From the NCBI GenBank assembly GCA_951406725.2, contig OX597827.1, positions 65,100,001 to 65,164,000 of the forward strand: 64,000 nt of DNA. Reading direction: 5' to 3'. The notes beneath the pieces are model-generated. The model saw only the letters and a list, made by a program, of their open reading frames with translations. It made no database searches and was not told the origin of the DNA. Origin of the DNA: Octopus vulgaris (lineage: Eukaryota). The position numbers were made by a program, and so were the translations under genes. This document shows positions 11,669 to 61,368 of the stretch, in pieces; position 1 is the stretch's first letter; each line of letters starts with the position of its first letter.

Positions 11669-12160
<492 letters not shown>

Positions 12161-29607: not shown

Positions 29608-29700
29608 GGGAGCGATATGATTCACTCACGCTATCACTCTAATTTCTCCTTTCTCTTTGGAAGTGTGCAACGATTAAAGTGAAAACAGTGAATCCGACAG
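29349..29700 (+). mobile_element. Probable Helitron 5' portion, directly after another Helitron-like 3' end
   Basis: Starts A|TCTCTTATTATAAAAGG; preceded by hairpin ATCCAC-TAGA-GTGGAT and CTAG|T at 29341-29345. Confidence 0.5.
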
Positions 29701-29716
29701 CGATAAAGAAAATGAA

Positions 29717-30322
29717 TTGGCACCTGAATGGAGTGAAAATTTAAAAACTGTTTCTTTCGGTGATTTTTCTGAAGAAACTGGACCAAGCCACAGACTTTCC
29801 CAGAAGAGTAAAGCCTTAGACTATTTCTATTTACTTTTTCGAATGAGCCCATTTGAAATCATTACGGCGGAAACGAACTGTTACTCTAAACGTAAACAAA
29901 GCGAAAGAAAGGATAGTTTGTTATTTCCCACAACCTTAAATGAAATTAAGGCCTATTTTGCCATAAATATTATTATGGGTATCAGAAAGTTCTATCGTAA
30001 AATTTTGTTGTATACCCAATTGAATATTAGCTAATAACCCATTTTCTATAGCGATGTTTGAACAAAATTTTAATAATTTTATATATTGTTGAATTTACCT
30101 GTATCTACCTGCAATTAGAGTCACTTTGTGACAAAAATTATAGTATAGAATTGGTTGAGAACATTTTATTAAATTATCTTCCAAAATTCATGTTAATATA
30201 TTGATAAATAAAAAAGTTATAGTTGTTTAATGAAACCAGACTAACTTTATGATTACGTTAGAAATTAATTGAAACACATAAGGGGTGTATTTTGGTCAGA
30301 AATATAGTAGCGAAAGGGTTAA
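29717..30322 (+). mobile_element. piggyBac transposase fragment (PGBD-like) and piggyBac right end
   Basis: FSEETGP..ALDYFYLLF..EIITAETNCYS..PTTLNEIKAYFAINIIMGI resembles the N-terminal part of piggyBac DDE transposases; terminus AGGG-TTAA at 30315-30322. Confidence 0.8.
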
Positions 30323-43194: not shown

Positions 43195-44015
43195 GAACTG
43201 GACCACTCGAAGCGCGACATTAGATCAATTTTGCTTTTCACTTTTAAAAAGGACGTAACGCAGCTGAAACTGCTCGCCATATCAACTAAAAGTTTGGGGA
43301 GGAAATGACCAGTGAGTGGTCAGCTCGAAAATGGTTTCAATGATTTCGCAGTGGAGACCTGATTATTGAAGATTGTGAGCATAGTGGACGCCCATCTGTC
43401 ATCGATGACGGTCAATTAAAAGCCCGTCAGTGAAAAGATCCACACAAAACCACTCGGGAACTGGTAAGAGAACTTCAAGTTAGCCAGAAAACTGCCTTCA
43501 AACATTTGCATGCGATCGGAAAGTCAAAAATGCTCGACAAATGGGTAGCACACGATTTGAATGAAAATCAGAAAACGTACAGATATGAAATTTGCTTTCT
43601 ATAACCAGACGGATGCACATTTCGATTTCTTCTCTATAACCAGACTGATGCACTTTTCTACTGTTTTGTAATATGTGATAGAAAGTGGATTCTGTACAAT
43701 AATAAAAAGCGTTTTTTAATTTTTTTGCAGTGGTTGGTCCAAAACGAAGCACCGAAAATCTTTCCTAAACGGGAGTTCTTCAAAAATAAGATTATGATGA
43801 CTGTTTAGTGGTGCACTACTGGATATATCCACCATTACTTCTTAAAACCCGGAAAAGAACATTACTGCAGAAACATATTGCCAAAATGAAGGAAAGATTG
43901 CTGAAAGAGCGTTCAAAGTGTTCATCAGCTCCAGAGATTTATGTTACCTGAAAAAACAAACTTGTAACTCGTAGGCAAAAATGTGTTGATTGTAATGGTA
44001 TTTGCTTTGATGAAC
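43195..44015 (+). pseudogene. Decayed mariner transposase with an internal deletion
   Basis: GRNAAETARHIN*KFG..SARKWFQ*FRSGDLIIEDCEHSGRPSVIDD, TTRELVRELQVSQKTAFKHLHAIGK..DKWVAHDL (WVPHEL-like), ICDRKWILYNN, KIMMTV*W, then C-terminal KLVTRRQKCVDCNG; stops and frameshifts. Confidence 0.9.
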
Positions 44016-45427: not shown

Positions 45428-45748
45428 ACTCCGCCGGTTACGACGACGAGGGTCCCAGCTGATACGATCAACGGAACAGCTTGCTCGTGAAATTAACGTG
45501 CAAATGGCTGAGCATTCCACAGACACGTGTACCCTTAACGTAGTTCTCGGGGATAATCAGCGTGACACAAAGAGTGACAAGGCTGACCCTTTTAAATACA
45601 AGTACAACTCATTTTTGCCAGCTGAGTGGACTGGAGCAACGTGAAATAAAGTGTCTTGCTCAAGGACACAACGCGTCGCCGGGAATCGAACTCACAACCT
45701 TACGATCATGAGCCGAATGCCCTAACCACTAAGCCACGCGCCCTCACA
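45428..45748 (-). mobile_element. tRNA-derived SINE, head type D
   Basis: Minus: GTGAGGGCGCGTGGCTTAGTGGTTAGGG..GAGTTCGATTCCC..GTGTCCTTGAGCAAGACAC; TSD ATATACATACT. Confidence 0.85.
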
Positions 45749-45757
45749 TATACATAC

Positions 45758-51103: not shown

Positions 51104-52136
51104 AAAGCAGGACCCGAATTAGATATTAGCAGCTTGAAGTCCTAAAACAAACTGAACTAATCAATATATGTTTATGTATGTAAGTGTGAGCGACAATATC
51201 TTTATTGATAAAAAATTGAAAATTGAAAATAAAATGTAATATAACTGTTATAAAATATGTATGTGTATATATAAGAATATTATATTAAGTATATTTCCGT
51301 GCGTTACTATTTCAAGGCACAAACAATTCGTTATGAATCTATTATAAAACAGTAAATATTGACTTTTACTTCTATACCGTTGAGAAAAAAATACACATCT
51401 TACATAAAAATCTCACTCAGAAAAATATCCTTCATCCTCAACACGCCGACACTAAATAATACTATACGTTATACAATAATCATTATTTATTTTTATCTAT
51501 ACTAGTGTGTATGTAGAATAATTACATCAAAACGTATGTAGATTTTACTATTTCTATTTTAAAGGAAATAAGCTATATTTATGTTTTCATATTTATGTGT
51601 GTGTATGTATTCATACATTCGAGTAAAGTAGTAGAACCTCAAAATACGTATTATCATAATAGAAATTTACTAAGCATATTAAAAAGGAAGCCCGTTATTT
51701 ACAAGTTATAAACTTATGGCAAATGCGTTTATATAAGTTCGATAAGCTTGCTATATATTTATTTGTATATGTAATAAATCAAATATTTAAAGTTTAAGTT
51801 AAATAAGCTCAAGATAGAATTATATAATCTTCAAATAATATTTAAAAAACATTGTTTAAAATAAAATAATATAATCATGAAGTTACAACTATTGTCCATC
51901 TACCAATAATTGTGTTCATATATCGATACTCATGAGAAATGTATTACATTATATCATGTTCAAATATCAAGACCTATGAGAAATTCCTTACTTTAAATAA
52001 TTATATTATATAACATTATATTATATTATATAATAATACATTTATGTTAGCAATATATGAAATCATAGCAAATACCCTTATTATATAATCCTTTAAATTT
52101 ATGATAAAGCCATTACATCAAAAATGTTTATCACAT

Positions 52137-52617
52137 GCAATAATAAATCTCTGAACGAGATGTAAACAGTAACCGCTCGACAAAGTAAAGTATACTAGCC
52201 ATTGGGGCTAAAAGCTACAGTAACACCTACCCTTAGTGGTTAGCCATATTGAAATGGCTAGTATGCTTTACGTTGTGGAGCGATTACTGTTTACAGAGAT
52301 TTATTATTGCTTGCAGACAGTTTTTCGAAATCAGTGACGGAAGTTACTAGAAAAACAATAAGTATTTGCAAACAGGTCTCCCTTCATCGTAAACCGGTGA
52401 CTGCCGTACGCCGAAGACAGGCAAATACCTAGAAACTGCAGTCCGTGCGTATCACTTAGGTTTACGAGAGAGGGATGACCTCTCTTTGCAAATACCATAA
52501 GAGCACAGAAAGTTTGCCTAAAGCCAGCTGGAGACGATGATCTCCTGGGACTAAAAGCTACAGTAACACTCACCCTTAGTGGTTAGCCATATTGAAATGG
52601 CTAGTATACTTTACGTT
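52137..52617 (+). mobile_element. Retrozyme/PLE-like element: 343-bp period direct repeat plus inverted arm
   Basis: 52204-52274 repeats at 52547-52617; 52137-52203 is an inverted copy of 52253-52310; internal long hairpin containing an HHR. Confidence 0.75.
52405..52449 (+). ncRNA. Type I hammerhead, CCGAAGA (U4C) core
   Basis: CGUACG CCGAAGA CAGG-CAAAUA-CCUA GAAA CUGCA GUC CGUGCG; 6-bp stem I; stem III palindrome ACUGCAGU. Confidence 0.78.
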
Positions 52618-52639
52618 TATCACGTGATAAAAAAATAAA

Positions 52640-52848
52640 TGCGACCTTTTAAAGCCTAGCCAGGCTCATGGGCCCGGTCTCCCGGTTTCATCGCTGCGTT
52701 ACTCATTTTTGCCAGCTGAGTGGACACGAGAAACGTGAAATGAAGTGTTTTGCTCAAGAACACCACGCGTTGCCCGGTCCAGGAACGGAAACCACAATCT
52801 TACGATCATGATGCTGACACCCTAACCACTAAGCCACGCGCCTCCACT
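52640..52848 (-). mobile_element. SINE, head type D with alternative tail
   Basis: Minus: GTGGAGGCGCGTGGCTTAGTGGTTAGGG..CAGCTGGCAAAAATGAGT then GAAACCGGGAGACCGGGCCCATGAGCC. Confidence 0.8.
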
Positions 52849-53503
52849 TATCAGATGATGAAGGTGGGTAATTATTACAAGAATCGTGTGTTTTACTCAT
52901 CAGTTATCATGTTAGACTTTCATTATACATTACTATATCATTTTTTTAATCTTATTAAATGATAAGTTTCAAATAGAAACAAGAGATAACATCAAATGTT
53001 ATTCACACGAGAAACTTAGAGCTCTAAGCGTCGTGTCTGTCAAATAGACCATCGTGTGGACTCGTTAAGCAATCTCGATAGAATATATACAGGACTTATT
53101 TTAAAGCTTGGTACGTATTCTATCGACCTCTTTTGCCGAACCCTAACTTTCGGAGACGTAAATAGACAAGCTCCAGCTGTCGTAATGTGGTGAGAGACAA
53201 CCATAGACACGCACACACACACACACACACAGACACAAAAGACCATACATACATATATGTATACATATGTCGGGCTTCTTTCAGTTTCCGTCTGAATAAT
53301 ATAATAATAAAGTTATGACTATTATTCATTAAATCCACTCTCAATGTGTTGGTCAGCCTGAAGCTACAGTAGGATACACTTGCTCAAGTTGCAGCGCAGT
53401 GGGACTGAACCAGAAACCATGTAGCTCGTAATCAATCTTCTTACCGCACAGCCACACCCGCGCTTATTATATAGAACACAGAATTTGATGAGCGTAAACA
53501 TAC

Positions 53504-53900
53504 GAGGATTGGAATGGAAGCACTCCGTCGGTTACGATGACGAGGGTTCCGGTTGATCCGAATCAACGGAACAGCCTGCTCGTGAAATTAACGTGTATGT
53601 GGCTGAGCACTCCACAGACACGTGTACCCTTAACGTAGTTCTCGGGGATATTCAGCGTGACACAGAGAGTGACAAGGCCGGCCCTTTGAAATAAAAGTAC
53701 AGCAGAAACAGGAAGTAAGAGTGAGAGAAAGTTGTGGTGAAAGAGTACAGCAGGGATCACCACCGTCCCCTACCGGAGCCTCGAGGAACTTTTAGGTGTT
53801 TTCGCTCAATAAACACTCACAACGCCCGGTCTGGGAATGGAAACCGCGATCTTATGACCGCGAGTCCGCTGCCCTAACCACTGGGCCATTGCGCCTCCAC
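53504..53900 (-). mobile_element. SINE, head type C, with TSD
   Basis: Minus: GTGGAGGCGCAATGGCCCAGTGGTTAGGGCAGCGGACTCGCGG; CATACGAGGATT on both sides. Confidence 0.88.
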
Positions 53901-54047
53901 ATACGAGGATTATCAGAAAATTACTCCATAAATCACATGCTCATATAGTTTAATGATCTATTTGAAAAATGAGTAATTTGAATTAGTTGTCTCTGTTATT
54001 CTTTTGAACGCATGCGTATATGTATGTATAGGCCATTTACTCTATAC

Positions 54048-55407: not shown

Positions 55408-55440
<33 letters not shown>

Positions 55441-55547
55441 TATATAAAGTTAATCCAAACATGAAAACACCAAGAGAGAACACAACAATGCGAGCGTGGA
55501 ACAAATATAGTATTATTGGACGCTCAGGAAGGAAGGGAAGAAGGAGG

Positions 55548-55582
55548 GTTTTACGTTTCGAGCGGAGCTCTTCGTCAGAAAC
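55548..55582 (-). ncRNA. Minimal type I hammerhead ribozyme, canonical core
   Basis: Minus: GUUU CUGACGA A GAGC-UCC-GCUC GAAAC GUA AAAC; lies within element 55448-55650. Confidence 0.82.
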
Positions 55583-55660
55583 ATAGGAAAAGGAAAGATC
55601 CAGAGAAGGGAAGACGGCGGAAAAAATCGCCAACGGTACACACGCGGTCACACACACACA

Positions 55661-59951: not shown

Positions 59952-60491
59952 TATAAAGGGATGTCTACAAAAAGATGTCTCAGGAGACTAGGGAGATTTA
60001 AAGTCAAAACTACCATGATAAATATACAGTCTACCGTATGAGAAGGGAATACAACTCTCGAAGTGAGCGCCTTAAATACAGATTCAGTTGCAAGTCGTAT
60101 GATTTCATTGTTAGTGTACATAATCCACTTTCTAATCGTCAGGAATAATTAAGAATTTTTCCCTTATGAGCTTTTCACGGTGATTATAAAAATTTTATCC
60201 TATTTAAAATTATATATATATAGACACATGTATATAAGTTCAGTAAAATTTAGATTCAGATGAATATGGTACTTAAGTTGAAGGCACCAGAATTTAGTAT
60301 GGTATTATCCATATGATTTAAAATAAGGTGATTATAATCAAAATAAGCAGCATTACCTCTGGATATCCTTGTAGCTTATTTTGATTATATATATATATAA
60401 ACGGAAAGTTTACGAAAGTAAACAAAAGACGAAGGCAGGTGGTTTACAAACAAACAGATGTATTAGTATAGCGCTCAGGAATAGAAAAAGT

Positions 60492-60527
60492 CTTTTACGT
60501 TTCGAGCCTACGCTCTTCTACAGAAAG
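60492..60527 (-). ncRNA. Minimal hammerhead-like motif with CUGUAGA core
   Basis: Minus: CUUU CUGUAGA A GAGC-GUAG-GCUC GAAAC GUA AAAG; all stems intact. Confidence 0.68.
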
Positions 60528-61368
60528 GTACACAGAAAAAACAAGGAGAGAAAAAAATGTGTGTAGTAGCTAACGATTATATACATAACAGTGTATCGAT
60601 ATATAGGTGCTGCAAACATGCGAACATAGGATAGACAAATTTATAGTTAAAACTCAGGAATATAACCCAGCTTTGAAATTTTTTCTTCCCTGACCAAATA
60701 CAAGAGGCAAATGTCGCTATGCGTCATCATCTTGAAGTAGGAGCTCAGTCTTTGACCCGGTACTTTGTATGCTGAATTCACATATCGCAGACGTCAACAT
60801 TGCTTTTCATCGATTCAGATTTGACTATATGAAGTGCCATTGAGAGTGAGGATATTTGTACCGATTTCAGTACCCAAATTAAACATCACACATTGAAAAA
60901 AATCATCATAATTCTTAATCGTTCTTCAATGAAGTGAAGCTCATGTTTGAATTTTTTTTAATGTGTTAACAAATGCATACAATTATCTAGAAATATTGTT
61001 CTTTAAACTTAGAACATTCAAAACGTCAAAGAATGTTTCCAGTAAGTATAACAATTGTAAGTCATTATATAAACGGAATTGTTTAATCTTTCGTCGATTT
61101 TTAGAAGTTCTTGTTTTTAAACAAAATTTCGTAAAAAACAGAGATACAGAGAGAAACTGCAGAGAAAGGTTAAGAGATAGAAATAGAAAGAGCAGGAGAG
61201 GAGGATATTTAAATGTTTTCGCTATGTGGGTGCGTTGCTATGTGTGTATGCATATATACATATGTATATCAATACATAAATATATATGCATAAATATAAT
61301 GCATACACAATTATAGATTCATGTATACACAGACATATACAGACACACGCACGCATACACATATACAT

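Follow-up and report, generated by a model that had tools for sequence, protein, structure and literature searches.

A retrozyme-like hammerhead repeat in the Octopus vulgaris genome, probably inserted in trans by a PLE enzyme

A non-coding insert of 478 bases in an animal genome, at positions 52137–52614 of the 64,000-nt stretch of Octopus vulgaris DNA analysed here (the window), carries a ~350-nt hammerhead repeat resembling a retrozyme. Its layout and that of related copies indicate that it was probably inserted in AT-rich DNA by the reverse transcriptase (RT)-endonuclease of an autonomous Penelope-like element (PLE) acting in trans. Because the locus holds one hammerhead and 1.2 units, it is classed as no more than a solo, retrozyme-like copy, which would make it a non-autonomous PLE passenger of a class already known. 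The original prediction of a slightly-more-than-monomer retro-copy of a small non-coding hammerhead unit agrees with this arrangement, in which no coding sequence continues from the 1.2 units. A second copy of the unit is absent from the window.

One full unit of 343 nt (43% GC) occupies 52272–52614 on the plus strand, and its first 39 nt (52272–52310) form a tail. It is preceded at 52203–52271 (plus strand) by the 3' end of an upstream truncated unit, a pseudo-LTR-like partial tandem of 69 nt with 4 differences from 52546–52614. Direct repeats of 71 bp lying 343 bp apart had been predicted and were indeed found, as a pair of 72 nt with 94% identity and a spacing of 343 (52203–52274 and 52546–52617). 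The true direct repeat is 69 nt, not 72, because the element ends at 52614 and the three letters beyond it are part of the target-site duplication. The predicted inverted arm was likewise recovered, in a main part of 43 nt with 91% identity (52161–52203 and 52253–52295) and a second part of 20 nt with 95% identity (52134–52153 and 52294–52313), which together form one arm with a 9-nt indel. As a whole, the arm (52137–52203, minus strand) is the reverse complement of 52253–52310, with 5 mismatches in 58 positions and an extra 9-nt segment. It represents an inverted 5'-truncated copy comprising the last 19 nt of the unit (52185–52203) and a tail of 48 nt (52137–52184), compared with 39 nt in the inner unit.

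The insert is bracketed by 11-bp target-site duplications at 52126–52136, adjoining the left end of the family, and at 52615–52625 (both plus strand). The two are identical at 10 of 11 positions and longer than 4 bp. Such a match is rare, as 3 of the 63,989 plus-strand 11-mers of the window agree at 10 or more positions and two of these are the very sites described. The left flank of the insert is 80% AT. The right duplication enters a perfect 16-bp palindrome (52616–52631), and the original target may itself have been palindromic. The duplicated parts have diverged at 4 of 69, 5 of 58 and 1 of 11 positions (about 6–9%). Where differences between the direct repeats are listed as variants, the window mostly carries the rarer letter, which fits decay following a single insertion. 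The locus is most likely an old, inert insertion.

Among 24 public runs under four organism labels, 20 contain part of the stretch, none of these being recorded as RNA. Assembled contigs from runs X1, X4, X11 and X14 were aligned on 52045–52665 at 80% likeness, yielding 5386, 5320, 536 and 147 contigs, respectively, totals that include some aligned on a 39-bp SINE overlap. Summed contig depth does not equal copy number and favours query-like copies, so the variant shares given below are rough. In the four runs, depth was zero over 52045–52107, at most 9 over 52108–52128 and high across the element; the missing coverage of the left flank carries no weight in itself. Among 24 of the 515 loose-end entries, contigs came loose before 52137 (56 in X1 and 65 in X4, with a flank agreement of 0.46–0.47) and behind 52614 (47 and 40, respectively, with an agreement of 0.61–0.63). 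The element is one copy of a dispersed repeat family with fixed outer ends (52137 and 52614) and diverse flanks, and the loose ends suggest at least dozens of loci. None of the listed contigs spans the whole stretch, and in contigs this short tandem arrays and 1.2-unit copies look alike. Loose letters before 52294 in five X11 contigs carry the 9-nt segment noted above. The family unit is probably ~352 nt, the 343-nt unit here being without the segment found in the arm and in other copies.

Two further forms were seen among these contigs. A recurring junction (loose ends at 52210 and 52553) links ~21 nt from the inverted tail to the 63 nt that end the unit, leaving out the hammerhead. It was found in 25 (X1), 17 (X4), 3+1 (X11) and 3 (X14) contigs with an agreement of 0.8 or more, and suggests an ~84-nt form that was re-amplified or is carried by another repeat. 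At 52171, 6 (X11) and 3 (X14) contigs share the tail end and then differ in sequence (agreement 0.85 and 0.75, respectively), possibly representing a sister family or an autonomous partner with the same tail. Relatives elsewhere were sought in phages, in two metagenome scans and in one prokaryote-genome scan, with no match, and a viral scan with the terminal hairpin also gave none. A loose hammerhead pattern returned 24 viral loci, which we attribute to chance: in all 24, helices I and II did not exceed 1 bp, and no match to the element had an E value under 0.48.

The long imperfect rod predicted at 52362–52495 (134 nt, plus strand; inverted repeats I18 and I21) is present as quoted, with bulges hidden by the hyphens of the quotation. 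It folds at −58.6 kcal/mol, with a z-score of −8.1 against 100 dinucleotide shuffles, whereas the other 209 nt of the unit reach −0.66. Unusual structure is limited to the 134-nt rod, and the description of the entire 343-nt unit as highly structured holds for this part and not for the remainder. One candidate covarying pair was noted in the rod (52382/52472); the two changes may lie on different molecules, so the pair was left uncounted.

The rod is capped by a hammerhead motif with type I topology at 52405–52449 (plus strand), established by numbering and a check of its pairs, with a predicted cut after C52443 (52443/52444). Helix I has 6 bp, helix II 3 bp plus a mismatch, and helix III 2 bp with an 8-nt palindrome (52435–52442); the self-duplex of helix III was calculated at −11.1 kcal/mol. 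The hammerhead layout of the original prediction was confirmed, but two core deviations had been missed: position 4 is C, not U, and positions 10.1/11.1 form a C·A mismatch. The Rfam hammerhead models gave no match at the gathering score across the window and none at E ≤ 10 for 52385–52470. Four weak Rfam matches at E ≤ 10 in 52000–53000, namely two to miRNA hairpins, one in the inverted arm and one in the rod, and two others, were rejected as far below the gathering score. Minus-strand hammerhead cores numbered zero in a relaxed scan. Folding of the unit as a circle, proposed earlier as a check, gave z-scores of −4.3 to −5.5 on either strand. In the circular fold, helices II and III had pair probabilities of 0.05 and 0.0, and the active hammerhead shape is predicted to cost 5.4 kcal/mol. 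Because two cuts are needed and one hammerhead is present, the locus itself is unable to release a monomer by self-cleavage.

The standard core letters occur in a minority of the contig depth. T at 52412 (core position 4) accounts for 31%, 39%, 43% and 13% of depth in X1, X4, X11 and X14, respectively, and C at 52431 (position 11.1) for 14%, 18%, 14% and 47%. Both core deviations appear to be widely shared among copies and not private decay. T at 52412 is less likely to stem from random CpG decay, because the remaining CpG sites in the hammerhead region do not appear among 40 of the 46 variant entries. The ratio of depth in the hammerhead bin to that in the 3'-end bin was 0.19 in X11 and 0.11 in X14, guessed to be RNA runs, versus 0.41 and 0.36 in the DNA runs. 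The depth profile of X11 and X14 is like that of the DNA runs, and was counted neither for nor against expression.

The inner junctions of other copies reveal how the insertions are built. Joints from the arm to a forward unit were found ten times among 15 of 25 joints and once in a separate table, giving 11; nine of these and the window's own joint make up the tabulated set. Their arm side ends at 52158–52202, and the forward side begins at a different position in each of the 11, ranging from 52203 to 52571; many joints contain a few additional letters, and each side is a short match of 20–48 letters. Four of the 11 are common to X1 and X4, at single-locus depth. Additionally, in X14 the sequence beyond a loose end at 52201 is the unit's reverse complement, indicating that the arm is a truncated inverted copy. 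Each insertion looks like two 5'-truncated copies placed head to head, one of them with a tail.

The forward starts lie upstream of the predicted cut site at 52294, 52303, 52327, 52386 and 52424, and downstream of it at 52471, 52473, 52474, 52555 and 52571, with a further start at 52203. Starts 52203, 52555 and 52571 could equally lie in either of the two direct repeats, and a length above one unit is therefore not established for any other copy. The arm junctions show no accumulation of 5' ends at the cut site (0 of 11); one opposite-strand joint lies at 52442. Since five of the 11 starts clearly precede the cut site and no start coincides with it, the templates of those five copies must have been uncut or re-joined. 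The copy in the window also reads through the cut site. Three of the 11 truncation points fall within 4 nt (52471–52474) in the 3' arm of the rod, a small number that could reflect a reverse-transcriptase stall.

The element codes for nothing recognisable. The longest ATG open reading frame of the unit read as a circle has 27 amino acids on the plus strand and 55 on the minus strand, and an 83-aa minus-strand frame of the element has no Pfam match. Comparison of 150 of the 177 filtered ORFs of the window with Pfam detected no RT or GIY-YIG domain; the single match above the curated cut-off was a transposase fragment, a PF13843 remnant at 29678–30031 (plus strand, E = 1.3e-6). A weak PF01359 match at 43605–43805 (plus strand, E = 0.008) fell below the cut-off. 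The window reads as non-coding animal DNA, rich in repeats and AT (22–41% GC per 2 kb), with many microsatellites and interspersed repeats. Strict patterns found no Pol III A or B box and no TATA in the element; each direct repeat contains one 6-nt word resembling an A box.

Several neighbours in the window deserve mention. A SINE-like repeat with a tRNA-like head (52627–52850, minus strand) begins 2 bases past the right duplication. Its start at 52627 is marked by loose ends in 80 and 82 contigs, and it has relatives at 45607–45751 and 53796–53903. A 12-nt word common to this repeat and the direct repeat of the element is probably a chance likeness. The SINE-like repeat presumably resembles octopus SINEs. 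Elsewhere, two PLE-type minimal hammerhead remnants (11698–11904 and 55408–55615, minus strand) are 90% alike and belong to a repeat different from the element; both end in a TA microsatellite, and the core reads CCGA in one and CUGA in the other. A third minimal hammerhead remnant at 60420–60590 (minus strand) is more distant and degenerate.

How might such insertions arise? In the PLE mechanism that we consider probable, a family RNA more than one unit long would be bound by the PLE protein, and the enzyme would nick both target strands ~11 bp apart. Reverse transcription would begin from two fixed internal sites ~39–48 nt apart, one start leading to the right end (52614) and the other to the tailed left end (52137). 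Joining of the two 5'-truncated cDNAs head to head would then generate the inverted arm and the 1.2 units. Published systems offer parallels. Rotifer Penelopes produce duplications of 8–10 bp and a 31-bp tail, and mobilisation of an unrelated sequence in trans is possible (PMC3846280). An anole PLE studied in vitro reverse-transcribes from two internal sites bounding the tail and prefers AT-rich DNA, and its RNA with a dead ribozyme inserts equally well (PMC11167929). Against PLE action in trans here, no autonomous partner was seen among the 150 of 177 window ORFs, and the 48-nt tail of the arm exceeds the published 30–40.

The original prediction took the layout as a sign of copying round a circle, and this step is not supported. 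Naiad PLEs, which lack hammerheads, also form a partial tandem with an adjacent inverted 5'-truncated copy and a tail of 30–40 bp (bioRxiv 10.1101/2021.04.23.441226); since PLEs without ribozymes leave the same pattern, the layout is not diagnostic of a circle. Nor are the copies randomly permuted, as circular permutation would have them, their outer ends being fixed at 52137 and 52614. Fixed ends continuing into a coding element had been named as grounds for rejecting the circle; the fixed ends were found, and no coding continuation was seen. A circle may still have served as template, since priming from a set internal site on it would produce fixed ends too, and copying round a circle has already been proposed for PLE tandems (PMC4209133) and for retrozymes (PMC7229834).

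If a PLE enzyme did the copying, we lean towards an uncut, linear template of more than unit length for this subfamily, because its ribozyme core is degenerate; a re-ligated circle is a substantial possibility within the same reading. The slight preference for a linear template comes from the degenerate core, which itself seems to have been amplified (by depth shares biased to query-like copies), from the recurrence of the hammerhead-less junction, and from the Naiad and in vitro results. Cleavage by some copies of the family may persist, to judge from their letters, because U4C alone permits viroid infectivity and some copies have the standard letters. The U4C change lowers activity while viroid infectivity is retained, and of the mismatches at 10.1/11.1, U·U is tolerated best (PMC3088659).

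The strongest rival has the PLE step in common with this explanation, and only the template differs. In the classical retrozyme cycle, applied to this subfamily, tandem loci would be transcribed, double hammerheads would cut out monomers, a host ligase would close them and a PLE would copy the circle 1.2 times. Such a circle, drawn from intact-core arrays elsewhere, is a serious candidate that we would back only tentatively. The 343-nt length and 43% GC match animal retrozymes, including those of mussel, whose 350–390 bp units accumulate as circles (PMC7229834). The hammerhead caps the rod at the predicted folding cost given above, its helix III, fully palindromic, would suit cleavage as a dimer, and copies read through the cut site. 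The tolerance of U4C by a viroid and the natural hammerheads with U·U at 10.1/11.1 (PMC7229834; PMC3088659) also speak for it, and some PLEs carry a small palindromic helix III as well (PMC4209133). Against the cycle stand the single hammerhead at the locus, the two core deviations as the seeming majority state, a layout that arises equally without ribozymes, and the recurring hammerhead-less form in 25 (X1) and 17 (X4) contigs. Moreover, cleavage was reported for one of nine retrozyme dimers, the other eight predicted Xenopus dimers remaining uncleaved in vitro (bioRxiv 10.64898/2026.07.22.740005). A combined scheme, more speculative and rather unlikely as a whole, would have founders with intact hammerheads make ~350-nt circles that a Penelope enzyme copies in trans, with crippled-core and ~84-nt hammerhead-less daughters spreading SINE-like. 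If true, it would tie retrozyme mobility directly to the two-start-site mechanism of PLEs and make the ribozyme dispensable for spread.

The unit could instead derive from an autonomous PLE, either as its pseudo-LTR region or as a product of internal deletion, and the short copies would then be 5'-truncated insertions of that PLE and not an independent non-autonomous family. We judge this unlikely, even though every mark of PLE insertion is present, summed depth declines from the 3' end towards 52381–52401, and retrozymes match PLE pLTRs in Xenopus (bioRxiv 10.64898/2026.07.22.740005). The period is 343 nt and not kilobases, and the helix sizes are canonical and not of the minimal PLE type. 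Contigs cover the unit continuously (records over 52294–52433, 52303–52394 and 52315–52443), the loose ends listed within the unit represent variant forms of it, and few contigs run on into sequence unlike the stretch (a fraction of at most 0.01 in three of the four runs and 0.11 in the fourth).

Very improbable is a non-autonomous DNA transposon, MITE- or Helitron-like, with a chance hammerhead-like motif and variable internal deletions. Fixed outer ends with variable inner joints would be expected from internal deletions too. In a MITE the repeats are terminal, whereas here 48 nt separate the left end from the start of the inverted match; in other copies the arm extends further as the reverse complement of the unit, and both a partial tandem and a tail are present. 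Least credible of all is descent from an infectious viroid-like circular RNA integrated as DNA, which would fit the size, rod and hammerhead but would call for ribozymes in both polarities and a rod or branched fold of the whole molecule, whereas the minus strand is without a hammerhead core, the rod takes up 134 of 343 nt, and the element is a many-copy genomic repeat with junctions common to two organism labels.

The preferred reading, insertion by a PLE enzyme in trans, bears on the question of which enzyme moves animal retrozymes, a case made in PMC7229834 and 10.64898/2026.07.22.740005 from co-occurrence, shared hammerheads and pLTR homology. A tail, an inverted truncated copy and a target-site duplication on a unit without an ORF provide independent footprint evidence for PLE mobilisation in trans. 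The added value lies in this insertion-scar link between retrozymes and PLEs and in the apparent spread of copies with a degenerate core. For the in vitro PLE assay already available, the family supplies a candidate template of 350 nt in which two start sites are predicted, and its natural intact and degenerate ribozyme variants could test whether cleavage or circles matter. A literature search returned no description of this family or of tails in retrozymes; the family may already be catalogued, as repeat databases and most subscription papers lay outside that search. Four motifs of the element did not occur in a supplement to an octopus repeat annotation, one that contains no sequence library.

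Among known systems, the non-LTR retrozymes of metazoans come close. Their circles are expressed in coral, mussel and axolotl, with units of 220–245, 350–390 and 330/350 nt, respectively, and PLEs have been proposed as their movers (Cervera and de la Pena 2020, PMC7229834). The element shares with them a non-coding unit within 150–450 bp, GC under 50%, a hammerhead motif of type I topology with a short palindromic helix III, a duplication of more than 4 bp and the proposed dependence on PLEs. It differs in being a dispersed copy of 1.2 units with one hammerhead and no tandem array, and in its two core deviations. It also has an inverted arm and a tail; the term 'inverted' is absent from the main text of PMC7229834. 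Solo or monomer retrozymes have been described as non-autonomous PLE derivatives in a study that argues for a PLE origin of retrozymes from co-occurrence together with homology to pLTRs (Li, Clavereau, Pollet 2026, bioRxiv 10.64898/2026.07.22.740005). Like them, the octopus family has dispersed monomer copies and a proposed reliance on the PLE enzyme. The evidence in that study is mostly from vertebrates, and in its available text the term 'tail' is absent and an inverted-copy analysis was not found. An active retrozyme is defined there by two complete tandem hammerheads, and the present locus has one.

A further close resemblance, in manner of insertion, is to the endonuclease-containing PLEs (Penelope/Poseidon, Neptune and Naiad), which similarly have a partial tandem with an adjacent inverted 5'-truncated copy, a tail at one end, duplications of 8–11 bp, an AT-rich target and a hammerhead upstream of the 3' end. 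The tail here, at 39–48 nt, is slightly longer than the 30–40 bp published for PLEs. Unlike those elements, the octopus unit measures 343 nt against 3–4 kb, has no RT-endonuclease ORF, and bears helices of canonical size in place of the minimal hammerhead with a long helix II and no helix III. Without an RT and GIY-YIG ORF the element is not a member of the autonomous PLEs, but it inserts like one.
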